Positions 11,006 through 26,427 of a stretch of DNA of 64,000 bases are shown here, in pieces. The stretch is from contig CAYOAM010000003.1 of the NCBI GenBank assembly GCA_964402035.1, positions 86,480 to 150,479 of the forward strand, written 5' to 3'. Within the stretch, counting starts at the first letter, position 1. Each line of letters opens with the position of its first letter. Below the pieces are notes generated by a model. The model did not search any database, had not been told where the DNA came from, and was given only the letters and a program-made list of their open reading frames with translations. Position numbers and translations under genes: made by a program. The DNA comes from an uncultured Candidatus Saccharibacteria bacterium. Its GTDB lineage: Bacteria > Patescibacteriota > Minisyncoccia > Phycocordibacterales > UBA918.

Positions 11006-11054
11006 AACTGTTTTGAAAAGCACCACTTGCGGGTGTTTTTTGAAACAGGAGGAT

Positions 11055-11086: not shown

Positions 11087-11129
11087 GTGAAACGAACAGA
11101 ATATCGACAACGGGTACTGAACGTGTCAA

Positions 11130-11153: not shown

Positions 11154-11177
11154 AATAACGAAGTGAGCGAAGGAGAC

Positions 11178-11309
11178 CAAACAGTCTGGGCTGAACATGC
11201 TGGGAGCATGTTCAGGACCTTGCGAGGTATCTTTAGAAAAGTACCCGCAAGGTGTACTGCTTCTGTCAGAAGACTGTTTGGGATTCGAAACTGTTGCCAG
11301 ATATTTTGG
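11178..11309 (+). ncRNA. Candidate structured RNA or repeat module, unclassified
   Basis: Long-range helix AAACAGTCT...AGACTGTTT encloses two stem-loops (CTGAACATGC-TGGGA-GCATGTTCAG and CCTTGCG...CGCAAGG). It is followed by repeat copy 2 and the 16-bp palindrome TCCGCCAGCTGGCGGA. No protein-coding signal. Confidence 0.3.
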
Positions 11310-11433
11310 AAGCCATAGTCCGCCAGCTGGCGGAGAACAAAAATAGCTGCAACGGATACTGAAACGGTACGTTTTAGTATCGCACTCTCCGCGAAAACTT
11401 GAGCGAATCACCTTTATAGATATGCTAATATAA

Positions 11434-12063
11434 ATGTGTCTTAATCACCTCACCTACACTATGCTTACTCAAAAAAGAAATGCGGCGATCGTGGCTATCA
11501 GTTGTGTTATTGGCGTTGCTACCGCACTTTTCTTTTATTTTGAAAAAGCCGAAGCGCCAGCCATTGTCACTGACGTACCAGGAGCGGAGACAATAAACCA
11601 AGAGACCAAGGAAACTGCCACCACGACCGACAACAATCAAACAACCACACCAACCGAGACTAAAGGTGTCGAGCCTACAACACCTAAAACAACTAGTGCC
11701 ACATCAAAACCAGTGGCCAAACCGGCACCCGCTCCGACATCGAAAGTTGTATATAGCGCTGTGGTTAGCTATACGGATAAAGGATTCAAACCGTTTCGCG
11801 TCACGATAGAACCCGGCCAGACAGTACGATTTCTCAATCAATCGAGTCGCGAGATGTGGGTTGCTTCTAATATTCACCCCACACACTCCAACTACCTGAT
11901 TAAAGGCTCCAACGACTGTCTTGGGAGCAGCTTTGATCAGTGCAAGGCCGTCGGCAAAGGCGAATACTGGGACTTCAAATTTGATCCCGTCGGCTCTTGG
12001 GATTTCCACAATCACATGCGACCGACCGACGATGGTACTATCTACGTTGTGAAGCCTCGTTAA
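11434..12063 (+). CDS. Membrane-anchored protein with Thr/Pro-rich linker and C-terminal cupredoxin-like domain
   Basis: N-terminal TM helix, TTTPTETKGVEPTTPKTTSATSKP linker, then FKPFRVTIEPGQTVRFLNQSS...IHPTHS...DFHNHM, which resembles EfeO-type cupredoxin domains. Confidence 0.5.
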   Translation: MCLNHLTYTMLTQKRNAAIVAISCVIGVATALFFYFEKAEAPAIVTDVPGAETINQETKETATTTDNNQTTTPTETKGVEPTTPKTTSATSKPVAKPAPAPTSKVVYSAVVSYTDKGFKPFRVTIEPGQTVRFLNQSSREMWVASNIHPTHSNYLIKGSNDCLGSSFDQCKAVGKGEYWDFKFDPVGSWDFHNHMRPTDDGTIYVVKPR

Positions 12064-12155
12064 TTTGAAACCGAGAAAGCCCTTGAAACACCCTCTTCTG
12101 GAGTTTTCTTATGACGTAAGATAGGCTATTCTGATACCAGAAAGTGAGGTATGTC

Positions 12156-12425
12156 ATGATCGACCTATTGTTCATCGCCCTCATAAGCACACTTTGCTTC
12201 TTCATCCTTGGAAAATGCATAGAGCTCAGCGACGCCGTGAGCGAGAGTCGATATGTGCGATCACTGGCGGCACTCTGTGGAACACTATTGCTTGTAACTA
12301 TTTTTATGAGCTGTGCGCATTTTGGCATCAGGGGACTAGCGATTGGAATATCATCCTGTATCGCGTTCACCGTAGGAGTGCTTGACGCCCGAGCATGTAT
12401 TCGAGATATCAAGACTTCTTCGTAA
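12156..12425 (+). CDS. Small hypothetical membrane protein
   Basis: 89 aa with three hydrophobic segments; GAGGT SD 5 nt upstream of the ATG. No homology recognised. Confidence 0.3.
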   Translation: MIDLLFIALISTLCFFILGKCIELSDAVSESRYVRSLAALCGTLLLVTIFMSCAHFGIRGLAIGISSCIAFTVGVLDARACIRDIKTSS

Positions 12426-12428
12426 CAC

Positions 12429-12458
12429 AAAACGGTCTCACAGCCGTTTTTTCTTTTC
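12429..12458. terminator. Bidirectional terminator between convergent genes
   Basis: AAAACGG-8 nt-CCGTTTT hairpin followed by TTCTTTTCC. Confidence 0.5.
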
Positions 12459-12470
12459 CACCGCACCCAC

Positions 12471-13649
12471 TCATCGCACCGTCTTTGCGATAGTTCCCAC
12501 CACTCGTTTATCAAAAACCCGAGGAATGATTTCTTGAGCGGTTGGTTTTTTCACCAGTCCTGCAAGCGCTTTTGCGGCTCGCAATTTCATATCGTCGGTA
12601 ATCGCTTGCACGCCCCGATCAAGTGCACCACGGAATAAGCCTGGGAACACCAATGCGTTATTAATCTGATTTGGGTAATCAGAGCGACCAGTTGCAACAA
12701 CACGCGCGCCCGCCTTTTGCGCAAGCTCTGGCATGATCTCAGGTGTTGGATTTGCAAGTCCAAAAACTATCGAGTCTTTTGCCATACGTGCCACATGTTC
12801 CGGCGTAATACTTCCCGGACCTGATACACCAATGATCGCGTCTGCTCCCTCAATCGCTTGCAGAACATCTCCACCAATGTTTCGAGGATTGGTCATTGAA
12901 ACCAAGTCTTTTTTATACCCATTAATATTAAAACGATTTTTCGAAAGTATCCCTTTGCTATCACATACAATCACATCTTTGATGCCATATTGGGTAAGCA
13001 GCAGTGCAACAGCGCGACCTGCAGCACCCGCGCCAACAATCACCACCCGCATCTTTTCAATCTTTTTCTTCACCACTTTCGCGGCATTGATAAGACCAGC
13101 AAGGACGACGATCGCCGTACCATGTTGATCATCGTGCATCACGGGAATAGTCAGCTCTTTCTTGAGACGTGACTCAATCTCAAAGCAGCGCGGCGCGCTG
13201 ATGTCTTCGAGATTGATCCCCCCAAACACGGGTGCGATACGCTTCACGGTCTCCACGATCTCGTCTGCATCCTGTGTATCAAGCACTATCGGAAATGCAT
13301 CAATACCCGCCATCTCTTTAAAAATGACGCATTTCCCTTCCATGACCGGCAGCGCTCCATAGTGACCAATGTTGCCAAGACCCAAGACCGCTGATCCGTC
13401 CGAAACGACCGCAACGGTATTGCGTTTAATGGTATACACACGCGCATCTTTTGGATTTTTTGCGAGATGTAGTGAAACTGCCGCAACTCCCGGTGTGTAG
13501 TACGTACTCCAATCTTCTCGTACCTTGAGTTTCGCTTTCGAAACCACTTCGAGTTTGCCATGCAGCCTTTTGTGTTCCTTGAGAGCGCGCTCACCAAAGT
13601 TTATCTTCTTTTTTGGGCTTTTGTTTGGTGCTAATTTTTCTGATTTCAT
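12471..13649 (-). CDS. NAD(P)-dependent malic enzyme (short bacterial form)
   Basis: Malic enzyme N-terminal and NAD-binding domains: YTPGVAAVS, GLGNIGHYGALPVMEGK, GAGAAG. Confidence 0.85.
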   Translation of the reverse strand: MKSEKLAPNKSPKKKINFGERALKEHKRLHGKLEVVSKAKLKVREDWSTYYTPGVAAVSLHLAKNPKDARVYTIKRNTVAVVSDGSAVLGLGNIGHYGALPVMEGKCVIFKEMAGIDAFPIVLDTQDADEIVETVKRIAPVFGGINLEDISAPRCFEIESRLKKELTIPVMHDDQHGTAIVVLAGLINAAKVVKKKIEKMRVVIVGAGAAGRAVALLLTQYGIKDVIVCDSKGILSKNRFNINGYKKDLVSMTNPRNIGGDVLQAIEGADAIIGVSGPGSITPEHVARMAKDSIVFGLANPTPEIMPELAQKAGARVVATGRSDYPNQINNALVFPGLFRGALDRGVQAITDDMKLRAAKALAGLVKKPTAQEIIPRVFDKRVVGTIAKTVR

Positions 13650-13720
13650 ATCATGGGTGCGGTTTATATGTATGACTAACTCGGCTATACTGTAACTATC
13701 GAAGGCTCGATTACCGTATT

Positions 13721-15961
13721 ATGCATCAAAACGACCCTCTAGCGAAACATTTTCGTATTGACGTAGCACATACCAAAGCGCTCAAACGGCTCAATGTTGA
13801 GACTGTGTCTGATCTCCTCTATCACCTCCCTACCCGGTATGAAGATATTTCTGCCATACAATCCGTTGGTGGGCTCATGGTTGGCACTGACGCTATCGTC
13901 TATGGAAAGGTGGGCGGCCTCAAGACACGCAAGACATGGAAAAGTAGACGCGCTATTGCCGAAGGGTGGGTTGAAGATGGTACGGCTCGGATTAAGATCA
14001 TGTGGTTTAACCAGCCGTATATTGCCAAGATGCTAACCGATGGGGTCTACGTCAAACTGGCAGGAAAAGTTGCTGGCTCCGCAGATAAACCCTACCTTTC
14101 AAACCCTGAGATCGAAATCATCGGCGACCTACCTATCGACCGGCACGATTCCCTGTTCAAGGGCACGGGGAACCAAGATGAAACACTCTATCCAGTCTAT
14201 CGAGAAACAAAAGGCGTCACCTCAAAGTGGGTGTATCACACCATTCAAAAATGTTTTAAAACAGGAGTGCTCGATACGCTTTTTGACCCACTACCGGCAG
14301 AGATACTCAAAACATACAATCTCCCCAATCTGCGCACTGCGCTCGTATGGATTCATGCACCCAAAAAAGCAGAGCATACCGAAGCGGCGCGCAAGCGATT
14401 TGCATTTGAAGAAGTGTTTTACATTCAAGTGGCAAAACAAAAAGAACGTGCCACCGTACAAAACATAGAGACCTACACCATAACCACCGACGATGCGCAC
14501 ATTCGCTCCTTTACCGAACGATTTCCATTTGCGCTCACCGACGCACAGATAAAAGCGATATCGGTGATCCTTCAAAATTTTACGGCGAAACACGCCATGT
14601 CTCGCCTCCTTGAAGGTGATGTTGGTTCTGGAAAGACCGCAGTCGCTGCAACAACCGCATATGCGGTAGCAACGAGTAGACCTCCGCGCATAGAACCCCC
14701 CAAACCAAAGGGTGTCCCTGAACTACGAAAACCATCGCTCATTCCAAAAGAGTTTGGGAATCTGCAAGTTGCATATATGGCACCCACCGAAATTCTCGCA
14801 CGCCAGCATTTTGAATCCTTTATCGAATATTTTCATCACCTCCCTATTCAAATTGGTCTTATTACCGGCAGTGGCTGTATGAAATTCCCTTCCAAGGTCA
14901 ACCCCACAAAACCAACCGACATTTCACGCTCGCAACTCCTCAAATGGGTTAAAAATGGCGAAATACCCATTCTCATTGGTACCCATGCATTGATTCAAAA
15001 AGCAGTGTCGTTTAAACATTTGGCGTATGTCATCATCGACGAACAACATCGATTTGGCACCAACCAGCGACGCATGCTCGCAAAGAAAGATAGCTCCAAC
15101 GGAAACTCCGCCAGCTGGCGGATTCCACACCTCCTTTCAATGACCGCAACGCCGATACCGCGCACACTGGCGCTCACCGTTTATGGCGACCTCGATCTCA
15201 CACTTCTTGATCAAATGCCCGTCGGACGAAAACCGATCATCACCAAGATTGTCACCAACACTGAACGCAAAAGCGTGTACGAAGAAATGAAGCGGGATCT
15301 CGCGCGCGGCCGCCAAGCGTATGTGATTTGTCCTCGTATTGAGGAACCCGATCCAGCAAAAGAAATGGCTATCCAAGCGAAGTCAGTCATTGCTGAAGCA
15401 GCACGTCTCAAAAAAAGTGTTTTTGCAGACTCCACGATCGGTATCTTGCATAGCAAGATGAACCCCAAAGAAAAAGAGTCGGTCATGAAACGATTTCTTG
15501 CGCACGATATCGACATTCTGGTCGCCACGTCCGTGGTGGAAGTCGGTGTCAATGTACCCAATGCAACTTCGATACTGATCGAAGGTGCTGAACGGTTTGG
15601 ACTTTCGCAGCTCCATCAGCTTCGTGGTCGCGTGATGCGCTCATCAGACCAAGCATATTGCTACGCGCTGACCGATAGCAAAAGCGAAAAGACGATCGCC
15701 CGCCTTAAAGCACTTGCCACTGCAAAAAATGGCTTCGAACTCGCTGAGTACGACCTCGCGCAACGTGGATCGGGTGAACTCTATGGCATGCGCCAGTGGG
15801 GACTCACCGATCTCGGCATGGAAGCAATCAAAAACCTCAAAATGGTCGAAGCGGCCCGCAAAGAAGCAACCAGTATGATCGAGCGCGATCCCGACCTCCG
15901 CATGCATCCCGAAATATTGAAACGGGTAGAGTCGATCACGAAAACCCTGCATTTGGAATGA
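13721..15961 (+). CDS. recG: ATP-dependent DNA helicase RecG
   Basis: 746 aa with wedge/OB N-terminus, DEQHRFG, SMTATPIPRT and QLHQLRGRV helicase motifs. Ends in TGA. Confidence 0.9.
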   Translation: MHQNDPLAKHFRIDVAHTKALKRLNVETVSDLLYHLPTRYEDISAIQSVGGLMVGTDAIVYGKVGGLKTRKTWKSRRAIAEGWVEDGTARIKIMWFNQPYIAKMLTDGVYVKLAGKVAGSADKPYLSNPEIEIIGDLPIDRHDSLFKGTGNQDETLYPVYRETKGVTSKWVYHTIQKCFKTGVLDTLFDPLPAEILKTYNLPNLRTALVWIHAPKKAEHTEAARKRFAFEEVFYIQVAKQKERATVQNIETYTITTDDAHIRSFTERFPFALTDAQIKAISVILQNFTAKHAMSRLLEGDVGSGKTAVAATTAYAVATSRPPRIEPPKPKGVPELRKPSLIPKEFGNLQVAYMAPTEILARQHFESFIEYFHHLPIQIGLITGSGCMKFPSKVNPTKPTDISRSQLLKWVKNGEIPILIGTHALIQKAVSFKHLAYVIIDEQHRFGTNQRRMLAKKDSSNGNSASWRIPHLLSMTATPIPRTLALTVYGDLDLTLLDQMPVGRKPIITKIVTNTERKSVYEEMKRDLARGRQAYVICPRIEEPDPAKEMAIQAKSVIAEAARLKKSVFADSTIGILHSKMNPKEKESVMKRFLAHDIDILVATSVVEVGVNVPNATSILIEGAERFGLSQLHQLRGRVMRSSDQAYCYALTDSKSEKTIARLKALATAKNGFELAEYDLAQRGSGELYGMRQWGLTDLGMEAIKNLKMVEAARKEATSMIERDPDLRMHPEILKRVESITKTLHLE

Positions 15962-16210
15962 TTGACACATAGTGCCCCCTATGCGAGCATGTTGCAAACG
16001 TTCTTGGGGATTCTGATGGATCGGAAAAAATATTGGCACAACGGTATCTGTCGCCGATGTGGTGGGACAGGATGGCTGTTGCGGAAAAATCAAAAGGACC
16101 AACCTGCTAAAAGCTGGAAAGGGAGCTTCAAAAACTGCACGACGTGCGCAGCTAGAGGTTCTCACGGACGAAAAATGAGACCAGTCCCAACACCCATGCT
16201 GCACCCCTAG
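15962..16210 (+). CDS. Small Cys-containing hypothetical protein, zinc-ribbon-like
   Basis: 82 aa with CRRCGGTGW...CTTCAARG. Starts with TTG directly after the recG stop. Weak support. Confidence 0.25.
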   Translation: MTHSAPYASMLQTFLGILMDRKKYWHNGICRRCGGTGWLLRKNQKDQPAKSWKGSFKNCTTCAARGSHGRKMRPVPTPMLHP

Positions 16211-16298
16211 GTGCCTCATGGGTTTTTCAATATTCTTCCTATTTGAGAAAGCCTATACTACAGGACGTTTAGCCATATTTAGTACTCTTGATCCTAAC

Positions 16299-16787
16299 TT
16301 AGAAGTACACCGTTGGAAAAAGCTTTAGAATTATCATATAGGCGGCACCAATGAGTCCAATCAAAATAAGAACATAAGCCACCGCGCGGAAGAGTAAAAT
16401 TGGAATTGACACAACACTTATCCAAAAGGACTTTTTTGCTATGCGTTTAGTATCAACATTTGCAACAATGATTTCATATATTTGTTGCATGTCTTCAAAA
16501 TGAGAAAGTGTCACACTACCATCCCAGAAACCTCCCTCTGCTCTTTCTACAGTAATGGCTTTTATTTTCCCAGATTTATTTTGAAAGAAATCCACATGTT
16601 CAATATCTCGGAAGAGAACTCTACGCATATTAAAATCATGAGAACTACTAGTGCGACCAGAGGACGACCACATTAACAGACAAAGACCCTCCTCAGTGAT
16701 TTCAAGTACTTGCTCATTGTTGAGTAACAAATCAAGTAACGATCGTGACTTTCTCAGAATAATCTTCTCCATAGTCGCAGAATGCAC
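16299..16787 (-). CDS. Hypothetical protein with C-terminal membrane anchor
   Basis: 162 aa in an AT-rich segment; C-terminal hydrophobic helix. No family recognised. Confidence 0.4.
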   Translation of the reverse strand: MHSATMEKIILRKSRSLLDLLLNNEQVLEITEEGLCLLMWSSSGRTSSSHDFNMRRVLFRDIEHVDFFQNKSGKIKAITVERAEGGFWDGSVTLSHFEDMQQIYEIIVANVDTKRIAKKSFWISVVSIPILLFRAVAYVLILIGLIGAAYMIILKLFPTVYF

Positions 16788-16878
16788 TAGTTTAACAGAA
16801 CATTGTATATAGGATTATTGTTGAACATAAGCCCCTTTTTGCGGTATAGTCATGGCACGCTGACTTACAGCACATCAC

Positions 16879-16952
16879 CCGTCCTTAGCTCAGTTGGTTA
16901 GAGCATTCCGCTTATACCGGAAGGGTCCCTGGTTCGAGTCCAGGAGGACGGA
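16879..16952 (+). tRNA. tRNA-Ile with anticodon UAU (decodes AUA)
   Basis: Acceptor CCGTCCT/AGGACGG, D-arm GCTC-AGTTGGTTA-GAGC, anticodon stem TTCCG/CGGAA with loop CTTATAC (U33, anticodon TAT, A37), T-arm CCTGG-TTCGAGT-CCAGG, discriminator A. Confidence 0.75.
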
Positions 16953-16961
16953 CAAGATCAG

Positions 16962-16996
16962 AAACAGCCAAGCCCTTTGGGTGCTCGGCTGTTTTA
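16962..16996 (+). terminator. Terminator-like imperfect hairpin after tRNA-Ile
   Basis: AACAGCCAAGC...GCTCGGCTGTT followed by TTTATTATG. Confidence 0.4.
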
Positions 16997-17674
16997 TTAT
17001 GTCGTCCGTCTCACCCTTATTCCTAACTCACCAAAATGTTTCAAAGCCATCAGGACATACTCCCATAGTGCTATGTCTCCGTATATTACATTGCATGTCC
17101 CGTGCCCAAAGCCATTCTTATACGTAAGACCAGATAATGTTGATGTCTTAACATATGGCTTTCTAAACTGACTCCGTGGTATACCCAAACGTTCTGACCA
17201 ATAGGATGAAACAGTCTCAATATCCATATCAGAGTACAGATGTAGTTTTATTTTTACTTTCCTTATGTCTACCTCCATTAATAACAGCCACTGTAAGAAA
17301 AAATACACAATGTCAGGATCTGTGTTTGCAATGAGGGTAGTGCCCCGCATAGATTTTGCACCCTCTCCCCAATAGAGAAATAGCCCCCCAAGAAACAATT
17401 CTCTTTTTGAAAGTATCCCAATGTCTTTTTTTGCTTTTTGATACGCTAGCGAGAGACGCGCCTCTCGCTTTCGCTGTGTGGTTATTCGATAGTTTTCAAT
17501 CCTGCGTGGATTCCAGTCCCGAACTGTACGCATCTGTTCATCAGATAGCGGCATATCGCGCAGCCACAGACTGAGTGTACTCTTGCTGACTCTCAAAATA
17601 CGTTTTATTTCGGAGTACGTTTTGCCCTCCTTGCGCAGTTTTCGAGCTTTTTCTCTATCCTGAAACCGTGCCAT
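16997..17674 (-). CDS. HTH-domain protein with possible degenerate LAGLIDADG-type homing-endonuclease fold
   Basis: N-terminal helix-turn-helix KEGKTYSEIKRILRVSKSTLSLWL, then FLGGLFLYWGEGAK (compare LAYWFMDDGG of I-SceI) with downstream spacing similar to single-motif LAGLIDADG enzymes. AT-rich, and TATACT lies 4 nt before the ATG. Confidence 0.4.
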   Translation of the reverse strand: MARFQDREKARKLRKEGKTYSEIKRILRVSKSTLSLWLRDMPLSDEQMRTVRDWNPRRIENYRITTQRKREARLSLAYQKAKKDIGILSKRELFLGGLFLYWGEGAKSMRGTTLIANTDPDIVYFFLQWLLLMEVDIRKVKIKLHLYSDMDIETVSSYWSERLGIPRSQFRKPYVKTSTLSGLTYKNGFGHGTCNVIYGDIALWEYVLMALKHFGELGIRVRRTT

Positions 17675-17860
17675 ATGTATAGTATAGAACATTAAACCGT
17701 ATATATAAATAACACTATCCACTAGTTCGATACTCAAAATAGGGCTGATTATTAACCTCGTTGATCATGCCATTACAGGTGCACCAAAATAGCATCGTCA
17801 CATTGTTTGTATTTGACACAGGCCCACTATCAAAGTACCCTTCCCGAGGAAAAGGAGAAG

Positions 17861-18097
17861 ATGATGATGCCGATAATGCCGCACTGCTCAGGTCCGTATA
17901 CATGCAGAGAGGGGACGACTTGCCCATGCTGCAAGAACGCGGCGGAACTTGATGCATTTTTGAAAGAGCATCTCGGTCCCACCCAATACGAAGCCTTTAC
18001 AGCACTTGTCGCAACAGGATTTGTGCTATCTCTCAAACGTGACGGCCTCTACACCTTGGGTGATCCCAGAATATCGATAACTTCACCTACGCGGTGA
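17861..18097 (+). CDS. Small Cys-rich hypothetical protein
   Basis: 78 aa, MMMPIMPHCSGPYTCREGTTCPCCKNAAELDAFLK..., with a hydrophobic C-terminal third. Strong AAGGAG SD at 17852-17857. Confidence 0.4.
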   Translation: MMMPIMPHCSGPYTCREGTTCPCCKNAAELDAFLKEHLGPTQYEAFTALVATGFVLSLKRDGLYTLGDPRISITSPTR

Positions 18098-18130
18098 CCG
18101 CCGCGCAATCACAAGATTGCGCGTTTTTTA
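18091..18130 (+). terminator. Rho-independent terminator
   Basis: GCGCAATC-ACAA-GATTGCGC followed by TTTTTTA. Confidence 0.6.
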
Positions 18131-18194
18131 TTTCTTCTCCTACACATCTGCAACTCTCTGAAAAAACCGTATCGATTGCTATACTAAAGCTGTC

Positions 18195-19706
18195 ATGGAA
18201 CTCCTCTTTGCACAAAAGAAGATTGGAATGATCCTGTTGGGTATTTTTGCTGTTTTCCTCGTGGGATTTTTTGGAAAAACATATCTATTTCCCGCTAAAG
18301 ACATGCGCGAGACGGCCACTGTCACTCGTGGCACAGTATCTCAAATCGTGTCAGTGTCGGGCACAGTGCGGACGCCGAACACCGCGACGCTTGGCTTCCC
18401 CACAACAGGAGTCATCAGCGACATATCAGTCAAAGAAGGCGACTTGGTTAAAAAAGGACAAGTACTTGCGACACTAAAGCAGTCAGGACCACTTGCTGAA
18501 TACAACGATGCATTAGCAGGACTCACGAGCGCAGAAGCTACCCGCGACGAAATGGTTGCAGGACCCCGCCAAGAAGCACGCACACTCACCGACGCTGCTA
18601 TCAATAACGCAGAAGCAGAGCTTGCACGTGTCACAAAAAAACAAGATGAAATCATCGAAAATGCATTGCATACGCTGTACTCTTCGGATCTTGCCGCAAA
18701 ACCAGTACAGGGCACAAACAATGACGACGTCCCACTGGTGACCGGCACCTATACGTGCACTAAAGCACAAACATATCGGTTTGTAGTCTATCCATCCAAT
18801 GCCTATTCGGGGTATTCATACAAAGTATTGGAAGGTGACGCCCTCATAACCGAAAATGCCGTAGCGGAAACCGCACAGCCGTTTGGAAGTTGCGGACTCT
18901 TTATACAATTTGTCATGGGCGCTCGCTATAACCGTGGCGAATGGCAGATCTCCATACCAAATACTGAAGGCGCGAGTTACACCGCAAATCAGAACGCCTA
19001 CACACTGGCACAAAAAGAGAGAGAAAATGTTATCGCGCGGGCAAAAGACGACCTGGACCTCGCACGCAAGGAAGCGACACTCGACAATGCTGCACCTCGC
19101 GCAGAAGCACTCTCCCGCGCGAGCGCTGACATAGCGAAGGCCCAAGCAAAACTCAAGGCAGCCGAAGCAAGAATTGCTGACTTTACCATACGTGCACCAT
19201 TCGACGGTATCGTAAGCGCAGTCGACATAGTGCCGGGTGAAATCAACAATGCAAGCAAAGGGATCATCATGACTGCAAACGACACCTACGAATTAAAAAT
19301 CCGCATACCAGAGATTGAAATTACGCACATCAAGGTTGGTAATACCGCAGTCGCTTCATTTGACGCAAAAGCTGAAGAGCTCATACCGGCAACTATTTCT
19401 TTCATTTCCCCGCTCCCCACACTCATAGATGGCGTTTCATACTTTGAAGCTTTTCTCACCATCAACACCATACCGCCCTGGATGCGAACAGGACTCAATG
19501 CTGATGTTGACATCACCACAGCAGCAACTCCCAACACCCTCATGCTGCCAAAACGATTTATCAAAACAGACGGAAATGTGCACGCTGTACTTATAATCGA
19601 AAATGGAAAGGAGGTTGAAAAAAATATTGAACTAGGTATTGCTGGGAATGACGGCTTTGTTGAGGTGCAAGGCGTCCCAGAAGGAACAGTGGTAATCGCA
19701 CCCTAA
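18195..19706 (+). CDS. HlyD-family periplasmic adaptor / membrane fusion protein
   Basis: 503 aa with N-terminal TM helix, biotinyl-lipoyl-like and long coiled-coil segments, and a C-terminal beta-barrel region typical of MacA/DevB-type MFPs. Confidence 0.8.
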   Translation: MELLFAQKKIGMILLGIFAVFLVGFFGKTYLFPAKDMRETATVTRGTVSQIVSVSGTVRTPNTATLGFPTTGVISDISVKEGDLVKKGQVLATLKQSGPLAEYNDALAGLTSAEATRDEMVAGPRQEARTLTDAAINNAEAELARVTKKQDEIIENALHTLYSSDLAAKPVQGTNNDDVPLVTGTYTCTKAQTYRFVVYPSNAYSGYSYKVLEGDALITENAVAETAQPFGSCGLFIQFVMGARYNRGEWQISIPNTEGASYTANQNAYTLAQKERENVIARAKDDLDLARKEATLDNAAPRAEALSRASADIAKAQAKLKAAEARIADFTIRAPFDGIVSAVDIVPGEINNASKGIIMTANDTYELKIRIPEIEITHIKVGNTAVASFDAKAEELIPATISFISPLPTLIDGVSYFEAFLTINTIPPWMRTGLNADVDITTAATPNTLMLPKRFIKTDGNVHAVLIIENGKEVEKNIELGIAGNDGFVEVQGVPEGTVVIAP

Positions 19707-19708
19707 CT

Positions 19709-20953
19709 ATGCGCAGTCTTCGTATCGGCCTCCTGTTGGGAATTCGCCAAATACAACGTGCAAACAAATGGGCTACGCTCTTAATTGTGTTTGTGTTGAT
19801 GCTTACCTTTCTTAACCTTGTTGCGGTCTCCGGCATCCTCGTTGGCCTCATTGAAGGGGCGGTGCGCGCAGTCAAAGAACAATCACTCGGTGACATAGTG
19901 ATTTCTCCATTGGCAGCAGAGGATCGCATCTTGGAAACTGAGCGCATTGTGCGCGAACTTGAGACATTTGGAGAAATCGAATCGTTTACCCCTCGATACA
20001 AAGATGGTGCAACTATCGAAGCAAATTACAAAGAACGGCGCGACTTGCGAGCCGAACGCGATATTGCAAACGTCAATGTCACCGGTATCGATACGGCACG
20101 CGAAGCACAAGCGACCGACCTTCCAGGCAACTTGATTGAAGGAGAATACCTTGCGCCCGATGATCAGGGCCAGATCTTGATCGGTAAATATTATATTGAT
20201 CGGTACGCAGAACAGTTTACCGATATCTTTGACTCCCTCGAAAATATCTACCCTGGCGATACCGTGCGCGTGACCGCTGGCAACACGAGCAAAGAATTTA
20301 TCGTCAAAGGCATCATCGATTCAAAAGTCGATGAAGTATCACTCAATACCTATATACCGGAACGTGAATTCAGGCGACTCTTTGCTCGCGACGACCACAA
20401 CGCGGACCAAATCGCGGTTTTTCTAAAGACGGGATCCGATGCTGAAAAGATGCGCACGACCCTACTTTCTGGAGGTCTTGGATCGCTCGCAAAAATTGAG
20501 ACATTTGAAGAAGCGCAGCCAAAATTTATCACCGATATCAAAAACACATTCGACGTCTTGGGAACCTTCATCGGCTCGATCGGCATCGTCGTCGCGTCGA
20601 TCACTATTTTCATCATTATTTTTATCAATGCCCTTTCCCGCAGACGTCAGATTGGTATCTTAAAAGCGGTGGGAATCGAACGTACGGTGATCGAGATCGC
20701 CTATGTCACTCAAGCGGCGTTTTACGCATTGACCGGATCAACATTGGGTATGCTCCTCACTTTTTTAGTGCTCGTCCCCTACTTTGATCGAAACCCAATC
20801 AGTTTTCCATTTTCAGACGGCATACTACTCGTGGAGTTTGGCGGCGCCATGATCCGCTTTGGTGTACTCTTTTTTGTGACACTGCTTGCAGGTTTTATTC
20901 CCGCATGGTTAATAGTCCGACAGAACACCTTAAACGCCATTTTGGGACGATAA
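19709..20953 (+). CDS. ABC transporter permease, FtsX/MacB-like
   Basis: 414 aa: N-terminal TM helix, large extracytoplasmic domain, three C-terminal TM helices (FtsX fold). 2-nt gap from the MFP gene. Confidence 0.8.
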   Translation: MRSLRIGLLLGIRQIQRANKWATLLIVFVLMLTFLNLVAVSGILVGLIEGAVRAVKEQSLGDIVISPLAAEDRILETERIVRELETFGEIESFTPRYKDGATIEANYKERRDLRAERDIANVNVTGIDTAREAQATDLPGNLIEGEYLAPDDQGQILIGKYYIDRYAEQFTDIFDSLENIYPGDTVRVTAGNTSKEFIVKGIIDSKVDEVSLNTYIPEREFRRLFARDDHNADQIAVFLKTGSDAEKMRTTLLSGGLGSLAKIETFEEAQPKFITDIKNTFDVLGTFIGSIGIVVASITIFIIIFINALSRRRQIGILKAVGIERTVIEIAYVTQAAFYALTGSTLGMLLTFLVLVPYFDRNPISFPFSDGILLVEFGGAMIRFGVLFFVTLLAGFIPAWLIVRQNTLNAILGR

Positions 20954-21113
20954 ACATGCAAAAGTATCTCATCTACTTCGTTGGGCGCTGCGGTACTCCT
21001 TCACCATATACATATAAGGCTCGGTTCATTCCTCGCACCCGCCTCGTATCTGAAACACTTTTGCACGTTTATACTATACTTTGTACATTCGATATTTTGG
21101 AAAATTTCTGACT

Positions 21114-21788
21114 ATGATCACCGCAAAAAACATCACAAGGACATTCACGACTGGTACTATTGAGACCAAGGTCTTAAAAGGTATTGATGTATCGATCGAG
21201 ACCGGAGAATTTGTCGCTATTATGGGAAAGTCTGGCGCGGGCAAATCGACTCTGCTCTATCAACTTTCTCTCCTCGACGAACCCACATCGGGCACGATAT
21301 CGATCGACAACATTGATGTCCTTGCACTTTCTGAAAGTGAAAAGACGACGTTCAGGCTGCACACCCTTGGTTTTATTTTTCAAGACTATGCTCTTCTTCC
21401 TGATCTTTCTGCGCGCGAAAATGTGATGGTGCCACTCTTGATGCGCGGTCTCTCGTGGAGTGAAGCACAAACAATGGCTGAAAAAGCACTCACGAGCGTT
21501 GGTCTCGGGCACCGGTATGACAATCTTCCAAACCAGCTTTCGGGCGGCGAGCAACAACGCGCATCGATAGCCCGCGCTGTTGCAGGGAAACCAAAAATCC
21601 TGTTTGCCGATGAACCGACAGCAAACCTCGATACGATTTCAGGCAACCAAGTCATAGACCTCTTGGGCGCACTTCACAAAGAAGGTCAAACGATCGTGAT
21701 GGTGACCCACGAACTAGAGTACACAAAACACTGCAACCGCATAATCAGCATGGAAGATGGGTTGGTCGTGAGTGACACAAGACAGTAG
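21114..21788 (+). CDS. ABC transporter ATP-binding protein (MacB/LolD type)
   Basis: Walker A GKSGAGKST, signature LSGGEQQRASIARA, Walker B LFADEPTANLD. Confidence 0.9.
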   Translation: MITAKNITRTFTTGTIETKVLKGIDVSIETGEFVAIMGKSGAGKSTLLYQLSLLDEPTSGTISIDNIDVLALSESEKTTFRLHTLGFIFQDYALLPDLSARENVMVPLLMRGLSWSEAQTMAEKALTSVGLGHRYDNLPNQLSGGEQQRASIARAVAGKPKILFADEPTANLDTISGNQVIDLLGALHKEGQTIVMVTHELEYTKHCNRIISMEDGLVVSDTRQ

Positions 21789-21851
21789 CGAAACAATTGC
21801 AAAATACAATCTCACCTGCTACTCTGCTCGCAGAAACAACAGGAGTAACCG

Positions 21852-22166
21852 ATGCAGAAAATAGCAGGCAGCTATCCCAGATTGACGCTGTCTCTCATGG
21901 TTGCGTTCTGGCCATTAACATGGGTACTAGCAGCATGTACCCGCAAGCAAACTGAACACACCACAAATGCTGAAATTGTCTTGGTGCTGATCGGTCTTGG
22001 ACTGCTGGTGACCAGCATCATTGGATTCGGAGGATCACTTTTCTTCGAACCATCAGACAGACTCTATACGATAGGGCTCGCGGCACTTGAATGGTATGCG
22101 ATCTACTGTACCGTGCTCTTTTTATGCGCACTTGACCGCGACAGTACAAACCGCCGAGCACCCTAG
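21852..22166 (+). CDS. Small hypothetical membrane protein
   Basis: 104 aa with three hydrophobic helices and a good AGGAG SD. Confidence 0.4.
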   Translation: MQKIAGSYPRLTLSLMVAFWPLTWVLAACTRKQTEHTTNAEIVLVLIGLGLLVTSIIGFGGSLFFEPSDRLYTIGLAALEWYAIYCTVLFLCALDRDSTNRRAP

Positions 22167-22190
22167 GGTGCTCGGCGGTTTTTTCTTTTT
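22151..22190. terminator. Strong bidirectional terminator
   Basis: CCGCCGAGCACCC-TA-GGGTGCTCGGCGG followed by TTTTTTCTTTTTT, between convergent genes. Confidence 0.7.
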
Positions 22191-22199
22191 TAAAGTTGA

Positions 22200-24272
22200 T
22201 TAAATTGATTCGTGGAGGGTGGTTGCCAGTTCTTTGCTAGGATCCGCAAGATTCATCGGATCTTTTTCTCGCACCTTGATGCCATGTTCACGCAAAAGGT
22301 CTTCATACTCTTTCCGTTCAAGAGTTTCAACCTTGAGGAGTCGCTGCGCAATCGCATCAAATGCCGTACGGTTAGTGGTCAATATGTTTCGTGCTTTTTC
22401 ATACGCCTCATCGATCATACGCTTTACCTCCGCATCAATAGACTCAGAAACTTTTTCAGAAAATTCTTGACCATCAACACCAGAACCAAATAGTGCACGG
22501 CCGCCAGCTCCCTCAAGTGCCATCGGACCGATCTTGTCGCTCATGCCGTACTTTGTGACCATGTCACGCGCAAGTGCGGTCAATACCTGGAGGTCATTTG
22601 AAGGACCTGTCGTCACGTCGTCAAAGATAATTTTTTCGGCTGCATACCCACCAAGAGATACCGCAATGTCATCAAGGAACTCTTTGCGAGACTGCATGCG
22701 GCGGTCTTCAAACGGTAGCTTGAGCGTATACCCCGCAGCGCGTCCACGAGAAACAATAGAGATTTTGTGCACAGGATCAGCAAACGGCAACATCGAAGAG
22801 ATGAGTGCGTGCCCAGCCTCATGGTACGCCGTGACTTCACGCTCTTTCTTTGAGAGGAGGTGTGATCTGCGCTCAGGACCAAGCATCACTTTTTCGATTG
22901 AACGGATCAAATCAAATTGCGATACTTTCTTGCGGTTTTCACGCGCAGCAAGGATTGCTCCCTCATTCATGAGCGAATAGAGATCAGCTCCTGAAAAACC
23001 TGGCGTGCGCTCCGCGATAACATTGAGATCCACATCTTCGGCAAACGGTTTCTTGCGGCTATGAATTTTCAAAATTTCCAATCGATCATTGCGATCGGGA
23101 TTATCAATGACTACACGTCGGTCAAAACGTCCTGGACGAAGCAGTGCAGGATCAAGAACATCCGGTCTGTTTGTTGCCGCAAGAACGATCACCTTTTCAT
23201 TGGGTTCAAAACCATCCATCTCAACCAAGATCTGGTTTAGGGTCTGCTCGCGCTCGTCGTTGCCACCACCCACACCTGTACCACGCACCCGTCCCACTGC
23301 ATCTATTTCATCAACAAAGATGATCGCAGGTGCTGCTTTTTTCGCCATGCGAAACAGATCACGCACACGAGACGCTCCCACCCCCACAAACATCTCGACA
23401 AACTCTGATCCTGAAATTGAGAAAAACGGCACACCAGCTTCGCCCGCGACCGCGCGCGCAAGGAGTGTCTTTCCGGTACCTGGAGCTCCCATGAGCAGCA
23501 CACCCTTCGGTATCTGCGCGCCAATATCGAGAAATTTCTTTGGATTTTTTAGAAAGTCGACAATCTCTTTGAGTTCTTCTTTTGCCTCCTTTGCACCCGC
23601 CACATCTTTGAAGGTCACTTTTTGACTCTGGTCATTGGGGTCTATAATACGCGCCTTCGACATACCAAAATTGAGCGCCTGTACACCAGCGCCTTTCACC
23701 TGACGCAAAAAGAACCATGCGAGGAAACCAAGCAAGATCAATGGGAAAAGAAACGGAGCAAGTGTTAAAAGCCAATATCGTGCTCCCGTTTGATCCTTGA
23801 CTTCAATCGTCACAGTCGCCAACTGTTCACCCGTCACACCATAGTTGCTCATCGTCTCAGTGAGCGCCGCATCAGACTCTTTCTTTGATTCTCCAACCGT
23901 CTTTCCTTCTTCTTTATAGGCAATCTCCAGCGCATTGCCACGAACCGTAATAGTCTTTACCTCCCCCTTCTTCACTTGTTCAGCGAGCACTGAAAGTGCC
24001 ACTTCGTCTTTCTTTTCGGTACTACTCGCAATAAACGAGTATGCCGTCGAGAGGAGGAGCAAGATCACAATCGTCGTCAAAAGGTTATTCCAAAACTGCC
24101 CGGGTCCAAGCGGGATATTGTGGTGAAAACCACCACCTTCTGGTTTTCGTGCTGGAGGGACATCCGGAATCTCCTGCTTTAGGAGCGCAGCCTCTTCATT
24201 GTGAGCAGAATGTGGCTCATTCCCTTGTTTTTTTTCCCGCTCAACATCCTTACTAAATGTGTAATATGGCAT
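22200..24272 (-). CDS. ftsH: ATP-dependent zinc metalloprotease FtsH
   Basis: AAA+ Walker [22 protein letters not shown] motif, HEAGHAL zinc site, two N-terminal TM helices. Start set at internal Met (MPYYTF...); the ORF extends to 24332. Confidence 0.9.
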
Positions 24273-24404
24273 AGTGGGGTCATTATACAGAAAATGAACA
24301 TAAATGCGAGCAAAATCAATAGTGACAAACACCGTCCAAGGTTTCCAAGGTCCAGCCTTGGAATCCGCCTATGACCCTTTGCACAAAAATGAGGTATAGT
24401 TTTA

Positions 24405-24866
24405 GTGTCTATGAACAAACCGATCTACCACAGCCGCGCACGGTACGACTATGAAATCCTTGAGACTTTTGAGGCTGGGATGGTGCTGTCTGGCCAGGAA
24501 GTGAAGTCTGTTCGCACGGGCAAAATAAAGCTTGAGGGGGGCTTTGTCATCGTGCGTGGCGGCGAGGCATTTTTGGTCGGTGTGTCTATCCATCCCTATC
24601 AGCCGGGCAATACGCCAAAAGAGTATGAACCCGACCACGCACGAAAGCTCCTTTTGACCAAAAAACAGCTAGAAACCTTATCTGCGCAGGGTGAAAAGAA
24701 AGGATTGACAATAGTGCCACTTATGGTGTATAATAAAGGGCGGAATTTGAAGATCCAGGTAGGTGTTGCGCGCGGCAAAAAGGAGTATGACAAGCGCGAA
24801 AGGACCAAGGAGCGCGAGACTGACCGTACGATCGAACGCACCATCAAACGCAGTATCGGGAGGTAG
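24405..24866 (+). CDS. smpB: SsrA-binding protein SmpB
   Basis: 153 aa with KKQLETL, GLTIVPLMVYNKGRNLKIQVGVARGKKEYDKRE and a basic C-terminal tail. Confidence 0.9.
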   Translation: MSMNKPIYHSRARYDYEILETFEAGMVLSGQEVKSVRTGKIKLEGGFVIVRGGEAFLVGVSIHPYQPGNTPKEYEPDHARKLLLTKKQLETLSAQGEKKGLTIVPLMVYNKGRNLKIQVGVARGKKEYDKRERTKERETDRTIERTIKRSIGR

Positions 24867-24988
24867 AAAGCTTCCCCACTCCACAACGTCTATACTAGTA
24901 TTGCGTTCTTTGAAAACTCAAAAGCAAAAACTCTACTGACTTAGAGTCAGTCGTTCCGCTTGAGCATGTTTACGAAAGTATGCTTCAG

Positions 24989-25391
24989 GGGGATGATCGG
25001 CTTAGACGGTTAGTGAGTATGTATGTGTGCAGTGTGAGAGCCTCTCGAATCTCTCTAAAAAATCGAGAAAATTCACGTGCTAAAACTGCTGTGAAATCTC
25101 CATACTTTAGCGGTATGGAGCTCGCCTACGCCTAAGCGTTTACGCTTTTCGCGTCGCGACGCGGACATGTCTGACACCCACTACGGCGTGTTCGTGTCAT
25201 ATTAGTTGGGTTATAAGGTACTACGTCGTTTCAGTGCACCTTGAATCAAAGAAACTCGGCACATAGTGATTTCGCTTACTTCAAACACTATGGACTTAAA
25301 TCTTCTTCGGAGGAATGAAAGTATCCTAGACACCGTAGATGCACATACATCCACTTCCTCGGACGGGGGTTCGACTCCTCCCATCTCCACA
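24989..25391 (+). ncRNA. ssrA: tmRNA (SsrA)
   Basis: 5' GGGGATGATCGGCTTAGACGG and 3' GGACGGGGGTTCGACTCCTCCCATCTCCACA match the tmRNA tRNA-like domain. Acceptor GGGGATG/CATCTCC has a G3:U70 pair and discriminator A. Internal frame GCT AAA ACT GCT GTG ... GAG CTC GCC TAC GCC TAA is tag-like. Directly downstream of smpB. Confidence 0.75.
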
Positions 25392-25402
25392 GATAACGCA
25401 AT

Positions 25403-25423
25403 CCGCCCTTTGGGCGGTTTTTG
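25403..25423 (+). terminator. Terminator after tmRNA
   Basis: CCGCCC-TTT-GGGCGG followed by TTTTTG. Confidence 0.6.
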
Positions 25424-25639
25424 CGTTCTGTGGAGTGGAGAAAGCAAATAGTTTTGCTTTCGTGAGGAGTCGAAAGTCGTAGCTAACTCACTTCCGCCTA
25501 TAAGCGGAAGTGAGTGCGAGACGTGGTCAAGAGCACTTAGTACACATGCGGAGCATGTTACTTAGTGACTCGTGACCGACACCGCCGTCCAAGAATCTTA
25601 GTGCAATCAAACGTAGTATTGATGTGCACTTAGAATTCT

Positions 25640-25700
25640 GGGGATCACTCCTCCCATCTCCACAAAATGAAAACCGCCTTCGGGCGGATTTTCTATTTTG
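25640..25700 (+). repeat. Degenerate duplicate of tmRNA termini plus terminator
   Basis: GGGGAT-CACTCCTCCC-ATCTCCACA: the 5' 6 nt and 3' 19 nt of ssrA are fused, then CCGCC-TTCG-GGCGG and a T-run. Confidence 0.55.
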
Positions 25701-25713
25701 GGAATATGAAAAC

Positions 25714-26427
25714 ATGCTGGGAGTATGTTTGGTGAAGTTGCAAAATAATTGTTTATATGGCATAATAATGCCCGTTTTTGTTCCAACCCAAACATTGAGG
25801 TTTGCCGTGGATATTTCATCTATCTTTAGACATGGGAGCGGCTGTACTCCCATCAACCCCTGTATATCCTGTCAGGGCGTAGCGTTCCTTAGACGTGAAC
25901 TTGGGGAAGCAAAATTCTCTGAATTCGTGAATATATTCTCGTGCGCGACAGAAGAGACTCGACCGCCAGCTGCGCCAGATTTTTCACTTGCAACATCTGT
26001 CCATGCTCTCGGACTTAAAAGGAGAACACTCAATTGTCTTGTGGGCCACGGTGTACGCACGGTCAGTGACATACTTCCTCTGTCAGCGGCGCAATTGCTG
26101 CGTATCCCCGGCATGGGCCAGGTCTCCCTAGAAGATTTGGAGATGCAGCTACAGAGTCGGGGGTTGCGTATCGTTGAATTCTCTATTCCACAAACCTCAT
26201 TGGATACAGAAATCTCGCAGCTGGATTTTGATCAGATGGCACATGGCTCAAGTGTGACACAGTACCTCAATAAATCGGGAGTAATGACCCTTGGAGATCT
26301 GCAAAGAAAGACTAGGGGGGAGCTGCTGCTAATACCTGGTATTGGCCCTGCCGCCATAAAAAAAATAGAACAAAGACTAAGGGAAAGAAACTTAAGTCTA
26401 AGGAAGTTTACGCACCAAAGACCGTAG
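25714..26427 (+). CDS. Protein with two tandem RNA polymerase alpha-subunit C-terminal-domain-like (helix-hairpin-helix) repeats
   Basis: SVHALGLKRRTLNCLVGHGVRTVSDILPLSAAQLLRIPGMGQVSLEDLEMQLQSRGL and VTQYLNKSGVMTLGDLQRKTRGELLLIPGIGPAAIKKIEQRLRERNLSL both resemble the RpoA C-terminal DNA-binding domain. Start uncertain: the ORF opens at 25624, and the first Met after the upstream terminator was chosen. Confidence 0.5.
   Translation: MLGVCLVKLQNNCLYGIIMPVFVPTQTLRFAVDISSIFRHGSGCTPINPCISCQGVAFLRRELGEAKFSEFVNIFSCATEETRPPAAPDFSLATSVHALGLKRRTLNCLVGHGVRTVSDILPLSAAQLLRIPGMGQVSLEDLEMQLQSRGLRIVEFSIPQTSLDTEISQLDFDQMAHGSSVTQYLNKSGVMTLGDLQRKTRGELLLIPGIGPAAIKKIEQRLRERNLSLRKFTHQRP

Follow-up and report, generated by a model that had tools for sequence, protein, structure and literature searches.

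Hairpins behind tRNA-Ser and tmRNA genes of a Patescibacteria genome are modules of larger folded units closed by copies of the gene's 3′ end

What kind of element are the near-identical hairpins that recur behind two RNA genes of an uncultured Candidatus Saccharibacteria bacterium (Patescibacteria)? The stretch considered here, referred to as the window, comprises 64,000 nucleotides (nt) of contig CAYOAM010000003.1 (assembly GCA_964402035.1, positions 86,480–150,479 of the forward strand), in which a hairpin with the consensus ACAUGC-UGGGA-GCAUGU (HP) stands downstream of a tRNA-Ser gene and of ssrA, the gene for transfer-messenger RNA (tmRNA). A first-pass annotation had explained three such hairpins as a small repeat family, either a repeat resembling a MITE (miniature inverted-repeat transposable element) or a recombinase recognition hairpin, tied to duplicated 3′ ends of the two genes. 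A read-out of the sequence bears out all three hairpins at the positions assigned to them. They are copies of one conserved module within larger folded non-coding units, and we tentatively favour the view that these units are structured RNAs read from the tRNA-sense strand.

The two long copies of HP (copies 1 and 2 in Table 1) share the core 19-mer AACATGCTGGGAGCATGTT, which occurs without mismatch at 11194–11212 and with one mismatch at 25711–25729, where 0.01 occurrences would be expected in the whole window; the agreement is 18 of 19 positions rather than the 19 of 20 first counted. Their lone difference, a C to T change, turns a G-C pair into a G.U pair, and pairing survives this change on the + strand only. 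The pattern ACATGC-N3-5-GCATGT is found twice in the window against 0.03 expected from shuffled sequence.

Every hairpin has a set position in a bigger element, as judged from predicted folds and from comparison with related database loci fetched for the purpose (numbered L002 and so on). A unit is 110–270 nt long and consists of T′, the reverse complement of the last ~18–24 nt of the gene upstream; a hairpin slot, X; a multi-helix core; and T, a direct copy of the gene's end. The full order runs gene, terminator-like hairpin, T′a, X, T′b, core, T and, often, a second terminator. T′a is complementary to the acceptor 3′ strand, and T′b (GGAATCGAA-like) to the T-stem 3′ strand and the T-loop. 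Both pair with T to close the unit, and what had been described as a duplicated 3′ end is therefore one strand of a helix. The duplicated ends described in the first-pass annotation are real (exact over 24 nt after tRNA-Ser and over 18 nt after tmRNA), yet they are not simple att scars: they are closing strands whose inverted partner it had missed. Between the direct repeats lie merely 125–270 nt and no gene. Nor is there an ssrA remnant, as had been supposed. The tmRNA gene is intact, stands directly after smpB (24411–24866; SmpB Pfam match) and is divergent in sequence, detected at full length by Rfam and not at all by ARAGORN. The label arose because ARAGORN misses the gene, and the supposed remnant is the 18-nt exact copy of its 3′ end.

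The tRNA-Ser gene is followed by two units (11006–11393), and the tmRNA gene by one unit and a truncated second (25430–25744). Unit 1 carries the tRNA's terminator-like hairpin at the apex of its X stem; a homologous X hairpin that has no terminator is present in L030 and L003. In unit 2 a further module is nested inside the X stem; HP copy 1 forms its first arm, and a second small core makes up the rest. The tRNA-Ser region as a whole (11006–11400) folds with z = −6.9 relative to shuffles. At the tmRNA locus, the tmRNA 3′ end pairs with T′a and so lengthens the stem of the first terminator-like hairpin outward, and a second such hairpin closes the unit; terminator-like hairpins also follow units in L003, L006, L037 and L065. 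Homologous units stand after tmRNA in L025, L061, L064, L065 and L088. The assignment of 25700–25744 to the start of a further, degenerate unit was made by eye, from comparison with L025 and L088 (gtggagatggag-HP-cgtggggagttgaaag). This second unit breaks off where the following gene has its promoter-like site (25738–25766, promoter scan).

Table 1. Anchor genes, hairpins and unit parts in the window (positions count from the first nucleotide of the window)
Feature	Position	Strand	Details
HP copy 1, CTGAACATGCTGGGAGCATGTTCAG	11191–11215	+	10-bp stem CUGAACAUGC/GCAUGUUCAG, loop UGGGA
HP copy 2, AAAACATGCTGGGAGTATGTTT	25709–25730	+	8-bp stem including one G.U pair, loop UGGGA
HP copy 3 (short variant), ACATGCGGAGCATGT	25544–25558	+	ACAUGC-GGA-GCAUGU, apex of type B hairpin
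Three-way junction 5′ of tRNA-Ser	10805–10877	+	RNAfold −50.7 kcal/mol against −27.9 ± 3.4 for shuffles, z = −6.7
tRNA-Ser(GCT), anchor gene	10918–11005	+	ARAGORN; Rfam tRNA 56.9 bits
Last 24 nt of tRNA-Ser, segment T	10984–11007	+	Exact copy at 11131–11154 (repeat search, 100% identical)
Unit 1, hairpin slot X	11006–11049	+	Stem AACUGUUUU/GAAACAGG, apex is the terminator-like hairpin of the tRNA (11016–11041); sequence and fold
Unit 1, type A core and T copy	11055–11154	+	Model R1 match 11056–11140, 77.1 bits, E = 5e-18
Unit 1, parts	T′b 11055–11064; P2 11066–11112; junction 11113–11119; P3 11120–11133; T 11131–11154	+	T′b GGGAUUCGAA, pairs with T-loop part of T; junction GGUACUG
Unit 2	11167–11393	+	R1 match 11281–11381, 55.2 bits; 91% repeat, 11054–11087 against 11279–11312
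Unit 2, outer parts	T′a 11167–11176; X stem 11177–11187 with 11271–11281	+	T′a degenerate; X stem CCAAACAGUCU with AGACUGUUUGG, enclosing the nested module
Unit 2, core parts	T′b 11282–11291; P2 11292–11353; GGAUACUG 11354–11361; P3 11362–11374; T-like end 11375–11393	+	T-like end degenerate
Nested type A core beside HP copy 1	11214–11275	+	P2 11217–11253; GUACUG from 11254; P3 CUUC-UGUCA-GAAG 11260–11272; R1 33.5 bits, E = 2e-6
tmRNA (ssrA), complete	24989–25392	+	Rfam RF00023, 84.8 bits, model positions 1–374 of 374
Last 18 nt of tmRNA, segment T	25374–25391	+	Exact copy at 25647–25664
Terminator-like hairpin after tmRNA	25403–25417	+	Terminator scan; inverted repeat 25385–25408 with 25412–25435
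tmRNA-linked unit	25430–25664	+	RNAfold of 25425–25700: −123 kcal/mol against −72.9 ± 4.8 for shuffles, z = −10.5
tmRNA-linked unit, 5′ parts	T′a 25430–25441; X hairpin 25442–25459; T′b 25464–25474; P2 25476–25522	+	T′a GUGGAGUGGAGA; X hairpin AAGCAAAUAGUUUUGCUU; T′b GAGGAGUCGAA
tmRNA-linked unit, 3′ parts	Type B hairpin 25525–25577; type C hairpin 25587–25645; T 25647–25664	+	
Second terminator-like hairpin, closes tmRNA-linked unit	25670–25693	+	Terminator scan: stem 25674–25687 and U-rich tail
Truncated, degenerate start of second tmRNA-linked unit	25700–25744	+	T′a-like GGGAAUAUGAAA, HP copy 2 in X slot, T′b-like GGUGAAGUUGCAAA

The interior of the units behaves as a conserved fold. Type A cores combine a helix, P2, that has a bulged A followed by GCU/AGC, a GUACUG junction, and a helix, P3, with a UGUAA loop; a strict pattern scan for such cores returned 16 against 2 in shuffled DNA. 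We aligned 17 type A cores from different tRNAs and lineages and imposed three helices on the alignment (T′b/T, P2 and P3). In this alignment 92.5% of cells are paired and changes on both sides occur in 27 of 29 pairs; none of 500 shuffles was as good, and slid controls paired in only 30–51% of cells. The junction nucleotides (GAAGC, GGGUACUG) and the loops are kept while the stems vary. G.U combinations outnumber A.C combinations in the helices (17 to 7), with six of the seven A.C cells consistent with a single conserved C.A position at columns 18–76. Type B/C cores, the tmRNA type, contain a CUUAG/CUUAG helix that has a U.U mismatch at its centre and in which a G.U pair is conserved. Eight of 16 pairs are compensatory in an alignment of 11 such hairpins, the apex is not conserved, and HP copy 3 is the window's version of this variable apex.

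A covariance model built from the type A alignment, R1, matches 52 cores: three in the window (77, 55 and 33.5 bits), the lowest-scoring of which is the nested core and was absent from the seed, and 49 in the fetched loci. All of them lie in Patescibacteria-like DNA, that is, DNA resembling the candidate phyla radiation (CPR), and none in the Arcobacter-type or Sphingomonadales-type loci described below. A co-oriented tRNA gene stands no more than 700 nt upstream of 29 of the 52, two have the opposite orientation, and the remaining 21, often on short contigs, have no detected tRNA. Units also stand behind tRNAs for Arg, Glu, Lys, Gln, Pro and Asp, a range that does not fit a link to cell-wall-bridge tRNAs.

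The arms of the units follow the tRNA that they stand behind. We counted 3′-end copies at 30 Patescibacteria tRNAs that were not the reason for fetching their locus: a 14-nt copy lies 20–450 nt downstream of 10 of them and upstream of none, and none was found for seven tRNAs of other phyla, in the non-CPR loci. Across eight orthologous tRNA-Gly(UCC) loci with GC contents of 0.38–0.54, substitutions in the acceptor and T-stem are mirrored in T′a, T′b and the T copy, and the bulged A in T′a is retained. This persistence with compensatory change across deep divergence counts against simple decay. T′b is the Watson-Crick complement of T (AGAGG) and does not copy the 5′ strand of the tRNA, whose GGGGG makes G.U pairs, so that the unit is not a duplicate tRNA gene in decay. 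The arms reproduce the end of whichever tRNA gene they adjoin and are not terminal repeats common to a family; in the ordinary meaning of the term, the units are not MITE-like. In predicted folds the copied 3′ strands of acceptor and T-stem are paired with T′a and T′b, as in an acceptor/T-stem minihelix. The elbow formed by T-loop and D-loop is not reproduced in the units: T-loop nucleotides are paired with T′b or P3, and ARAGORN and the Rfam tRNA model both miss the units.

HP itself is more widely distributed. Its exact 19-mer occurs at 38 loci in a species-representative genome set and at 114 metagenome loci; by our own arithmetic about 9 exact matches would arise by chance in 596 Gb, and isolated matches in coding sequence are therefore probably chance. 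The remaining loci fall into three context families, Arcobacter-type, Sphingomonadales-type and Patescibacteria. In Patescibacteria, HP lies 50–260 nt downstream of a co-oriented tRNA or tmRNA gene in 30 cases, with no independent antisense case, and the anchor genes include those for Gly-UCC/GCC, Ser, Thr, Glu, Gln, Ala and tmRNA. The idea of one small family tied to tRNA and tmRNA 3′-end duplications is upheld by these cases. The idea that the hairpin alone is the element is not, as HP is a swappable module of a larger fold supported by covariation. The X slot may hold HP (L006, L017, L025, L088 and others), AAAGCA...UGCUUU (the tmRNA-linked unit of the window, L061 and L065) or ACAGUC-UGGGA-GACUGU (L030, L093 and the stem of unit 2 in the window), and HP is also found at the apex of P2 (L003, L038) or of P3-like hairpins. 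Beyond the ascertained HP, the Patescibacteria loci contain 22 further hairpins with a UGGGA loop on different, compensating stems, and control loops are rarer. UGGGA-loop hairpins number 69 against 59 on the mirror strand, the excess consisting of stems with G.U pairs.

The loop of HP, CUGGGAG, is exactly complementary to CUCCCAG, and hairpins with CUCCCAG and UGGGA loops occur on one strand in the Arcobacter-type element and in the CPR locus L078. Such complementary loops suggest that HP may serve in loop-loop docking.

The relatives of HP outside Patescibacteria have architectures of their own. About 51 HP loci are of the low-GC Arcobacter type (including L014, L018, L019, L028, L032, L105, L158 and about 45 metagenome loci). 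Here an identical HP belongs to a dispersed, multicopy, intergenic element of at least 200–400 nt, with a CUCCCAG-loop hairpin upstream, a AACUUAGGUAGUCGCAGACC segment that resembles type B, and a closing helix that a U-run follows; L105 and L158 conserve the element at an orthologous position. The Sphingomonadales type numbers about 17 loci (L016, L022, L026, L031, L033–L036 and others). There, as in L002, L005 and L008 and in L015 and L029, an identical HP sits in a three-way junction whose adjacent hairpin has a loop, CCCCCGG, able to pair with that of HP, and the flanks are conserved across genera. Neither element has a match in Rfam. At L078 (9630–9800; also in L069) the tRNA-sense strand carries a reverse HP with the loop UCCCA, followed some 40 nt later by an AGUC-UGGGA-GACU hairpin together with a type A core, an arrangement directly upstream of tRNA-Arg(CCU). 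A second recurrent Patescibacteria hairpin, ACUGCU-UGGAA-GGCAGU, was seen six times, and its variant ACUGGU-UGGAA-GCCAGU three times.

We consider it the best single account, at slightly short of even confidence, that the units are sense-strand structured RNAs whose closing helix mimics an acceptor/T-stem minihelix and engages tRNA-end enzymes, while HP docks. On this account they would be read from the tRNA-sense strand, either by read-through from the gene or from a start of their own, and the closing helix would reproduce the minihelix of the adjacent tRNA. RNase P, RNase Z and the CCA-adding enzyme are proposed to recognise, trim and stabilise the units through that helix. HP would be a peripheral docking hairpin whose CUGGGAG loop pairs with CUCCCAG loops, and units would multiply and swap cores locally through duplication and recombination at the T repeats. 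The distinct terminators after tmRNA and again after its unit suggest that the units are transcribed.

Several observations weigh against this account. We infer transcription of the units solely from their orientation, the G.U bias and the terminators; a terminator-like hairpin stands between gene and unit, and a promoter search gave no convincing promoter for the units. The tmRNA-linked unit is nearly pure Watson-Crick (88 such pairs and one G.U) and folds equally well on both strands, which fits young DNA palindromes as well as RNA. No CUCCCAG partner hairpin was found on the + strand of the window. The number of units after tmRNA is three in L061, two in L064, one in the window, L065 and L025, and zero in L062 and L067, at loci that conserve ftsH-smpB-ssrA synteny. 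The orthologous tRNA-Gly site in L170 has a type B core in place of type A, P2 of L079/L121 holds an insertion, modules can be nested (unit 2 of the window, 11177–11281) or inverted (L027, L114), and the direct repeat of L078 runs 27 nt beyond the tRNA end into the trailer. The variation in copy number, the core swap, the P2 insertion, the nesting and inversion, and the long L078 repeat show duplication or recombination at the T repeats at the level of DNA.

A bolder form of the RNA account can be drawn, and we hold it to be doubtful. The units would constitute a phylum-wide class of tRNA-anchored structured RNAs whose closing helix is 'programmed' by copying the tRNA 3′ end in both orientations, each unit mimicking or pairing with its own tRNA. 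They could be tRNA-specific decoys, regulators of tRNA-end enzymes or toxins, or self-propagating cassettes of RNA or single-stranded DNA for which the tRNA end is target and template at once. In that case the UGGGA hairpin would be a shared kissing-loop connector, one that multicopy RNAs of unrelated kind in Arcobacter-type and Sphingomonadales-type DNA employ as well.

Some narrower identities can be set aside. On inspection, the junction sequences do not fit a hammerhead, twister or pistol core. Mimicry of an anticodon arm by HP is at odds with the 3–4-nt loops of other hairpins in the X slot, and a CsrA-type GGA site is not general. T′ runs on into the gene trailer, not into CCA, and there is no reverse transcriptase, which leaves no role as a primer-binding site for such an enzyme. 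An invertible promoter switch does not suit helices with strand bias and covariation, of which only 2 of 31 cores are flipped.

The main rival to the RNA account takes the units for DNA elements that move or duplicate without being autonomous: miniature cassettes, integrative or MITE-like in kind, which would fold as single-stranded DNA and enter tRNA and tmRNA genes at the segment from the T-loop to the 3′ end. We regard it as a distinct, minority possibility. T would be the duplicated target or attachment segment, T′/T the folded recognition stem, comparable to integron attC or CTX-phage attP, and the UGGGA hairpin would serve an enzyme whose gene lies elsewhere, for recognition or for insertion. 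Such cassettes would produce tandem arrays and a copy number that varies (none to three units after tmRNA, two after tRNA-Ser, three T copies in L027), as well as the core swap at the orthologous site in L170, the nested and inverted modules and the extended repeat of L078. The direct repeats always start in the T-loop, T could be read as an 18–50-nt target duplication, and the presence and copy number of units vary between distant lineages. The stems are near-perfectly Watson-Crick, and the strand bias and covariation described above fit folded single-stranded DNA as well as RNA. The HP 19-mer, moreover, is identical in lineages of widely differing GC, which suggests spread and not drift.

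Against mobility, the arms differ at each tRNA and every locus needs its own T′ and T, so that one element cannot simply hop. Units behind tRNA-Gly(UCC) persist in deeply diverged genomes with compensatory changes, unlike decaying insertions, and the terminators after units suggest transcription. The link to a recombinase that the first-pass annotation had envisaged finds no counterpart in the genes nearby: Pfam detected no integrase, transposase or reverse transcriptase domain in 56 window open reading frames (ORFs; of about 57 of at least 120 amino acids) or in 10 ORFs flanking related units. Neither the window nor the fetched flanks showed a related autonomous insertion sequence with a transposase, and we know of no parent insertion sequence for the units. 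Among 2.9 million viral contigs HP had no match, and the type A junction pattern had 20, all apparently chance and mostly in coding sequence. A search for UGGGA hairpins split by insertions gave noise apart from the nested case in the window. For a comparison of filled and empty sites, exact-protein look-ups matched identical contigs only, among them one of 461.7 kb in ENA, and a metagenome scan with the tmRNA 3′ end yielded no close relative. The SmpB protein of the window is at most 73% identical to any other, its named relatives being Patescibacteria, Kaiserbacteria and Pacebacteria.

One gene family adjoining tRNA genes could speak for mobility, in that it is possibly homing-endonuclease-like. 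Its member in the window (16997–17737, − strand) lies beside tRNA-Ile(UAU) and encodes an N-terminal helix-turn-helix, the only domain Pfam detects, and the motif LFLGGLFLYWGEGAK. In Patescibacteria the family was found at seven places, each time with a tRNA gene no more than about 50 nt away: before tRNA-Gly(GCC) in L024, L027 and L093, before tRNA-Gly(UCC) in L079/L121 and L095, and in the window. A family profile has a weak match (E = 0.03) to I-DmoI, a LAGLIDADG homing endonuclease, at LFLGGLFLYWGEGAK. Some orthologous tRNA loci have the gene and others lack it, so that it may be free-standing and homing-endonuclease-like. The tRNA-Ile(UAU) gene itself (16879–16953) encodes an uncommon bacterial isoacceptor and has no T′/T unit downstream.

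It is unlikely that the units are functionless, neutral by-products of replication at palindromic terminators, in which template switching or quasipalindrome correction extends a stem into T′ and slippage between short repeats makes the T copies. T′a does abut the terminator hairpin and lengthen its stem, the stems are nearly all Watson-Crick, and hairpin-templated correction and repeat conversion could make T, T′ and the T copy change in concert. Such a process leaves the conserved unpaired features unexplained (GUACUG, the bulged A preceding GCU/AGC, the loops UGUAA and UGGGA, the U.U of CUUAG/CUUAG), which are kept across tRNAs and lineages while the stems covary. It accounts neither for retention in very small, streamlined genomes nor for the bias of G.U over A.C.

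Poorer still is the case for ordinary attL/attR scars, left by integrase islands or prophages that decayed to a few hundred bases, with the hairpin as a leftover or as an integrase or excisionase site; this reading is largely refuted, and we give it very little credence. The T-loop, where the repeats start, was reportedly described by Williams in 2002 as a crossover sublocation. Integrated elements are classically recognised by a partly duplicated tRNA or tmRNA 3′ end (PMC9897764). The 125–270 nt between the repeats hold no gene, however, and the ORFs screened have no integrase domain. Integration does not produce the inverted copy T′, which recurs with the same short architecture at many tRNAs and lineages, and helices that covary instead of keeping their sequence are unexpected for double-stranded protein-binding sites. 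Chance likeness of unrelated terminator-like hairpins is refuted, for although short palindromes are common and, with about 9 exact 19-mers expected in 596 Gb, some single non-CPR matches are probably chance, the window has 2–3 copies against 0.01–0.03 expected, the 38 and 114 database loci fall into a few context families, and the position of the hairpin within units is fixed.

Two further features of the window are recorded. Upstream of tRNA-Ser, the three-way junction listed in Table 1 is closed by a direct copy of nt 1–15 of the tRNA (10800–10814) paired with an inverted copy of nt 6–20 (10862–10876); this structure (10800–10877) may be the 5′-side counterpart of the 3′ units, in mirror order, with the inverted copy proximal to the gene and the direct copy distal. 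Two type IV pilus gene sets (364–10755 and 57473–62242: PilD, PilC, PilT, PilB, PilM and pilins), together with ComF, ComEC and RecJ, make up DNA-uptake equipment typical of Patescibacteria.

Patescibacteria genomes are tiny and streamlined and have little non-coding DNA, yet about one-third of the sampled tRNA genes are trailed by one to three units. Should the units be RNAs, they would form a new, abundant tRNA-mimicking class in a phylum whose RNA biology is almost unexplored, and a handle on tRNA-end processing, on tRNA-targeting toxins and on RNA-RNA assemblies. Should they be DNA elements, they would represent a new kind of target-copying cassette, and systematic 'tRNA fragments' open to misreading as integration scars when islands are mapped. 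Under either reading, covariance model R1 makes the family searchable. Searches of open-access text turned up no paper with the HP sequence and, on Patescibacteria tRNAs, repeats and structured RNAs, only group I intron work and general surveys.

How do the units compare with known systems? Integration of kilobase-scale elements is the classical source of tRNA fragments, and attL/attR scars share with the units a direct repeat of the gene's 3′ part downstream of an intact gene, a start in the T-loop and tandem arrays (PMC9897764). Repeats of this kind are present at both anchor genes of the window (24 and 18 nt; Table 1). Unlike such scars, the units have no gene or integrase of their own, always carry the inverted copy T′ and have a covarying interior common to different tRNAs; the DNA separating the repeats is non-coding, and Pfam found no recombinase domain among the 56 ORFs of the window and the 10 flanking ORFs. 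MITEs and repetitive extragenic palindromic (REP) repeats are likewise small, non-coding, hairpin-rich, repeated, intergenic and sometimes nested (PMC3184786), and the Arcobacter-type relative is dispersed and multicopy as they are. The Patescibacteria arms are by contrast locus-specific, the units are anchored to and co-oriented with tRNA 3′ ends, and internal nucleotides at junctions and in loops show the conservation of structured RNAs. Terminal inverted repeats common to the family are lacking: T′/T differ at every locus, and the copies in the window share core motifs and not termini.

Among RNAs, ROOL and GOLLD are structured non-coding RNAs of unknown function that often lie beside tRNA genes and are possibly co-transcribed with them (PMC5737381). 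The units match neither in Rfam, are much smaller (110–270 nt), are built on copies of the tRNA 3′ end and are not in prophages, HP having no match in the viral contigs. The group I introns of Patescibacteria tRNA genes belong to the same phylum and are tRNA-associated RNA elements mostly free of homing endonuclease genes (PMC13011429). Those introns, however, interrupt the anticodon loop and match Rfam, whereas the units lie outside intact genes and match no Rfam model. Rfam 15, the check that the first-pass annotation had called for, found at gathering score nothing beyond the tRNA and tmRNA genes themselves in the window, and nothing further in 18 related loci; in E-value mode (E ≤ 10), 11000–11420 and 25385–25800 gave chance-level matches only.

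In plant mitochondrial t-elements, MALAT1 mascRNA and viral tRNA-like structures, a helix resembling the acceptor/T-arm may recruit RNase P, RNase Z or the CCA-adding enzyme. The mimic in the units differs in being a copied, real tRNA 3′ strand with its perfect complement, a helix that co-evolves with the adjacent gene, and the units have no T-loop because its bases are paired. Integron attC sites and the attP of CTX phage are folded single-strand sites in which structure and not sequence is conserved, strand specificity and extrahelical features are kept, the apex is variable and cassettes form arrays. The units share with them structure over sequence, strand specificity, conserved extrahelical features, a variable apex and cassette-like tandem arrays. 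They depart from integron attC in having no R′/R″ boxes (RYYYAAC ... GTTRRRY), T beginning with GTTCGAA or ACTCC and not GTTRRRY; no integron integrase or attI is nearby, no integrase was found in the ORFs screened, and the stems copy the tRNA end. Because the units thus differ in defining features from att scars, MITEs, Rfam families, attC sites and canonical tRNA-like structures, the family is apparently new in kind.

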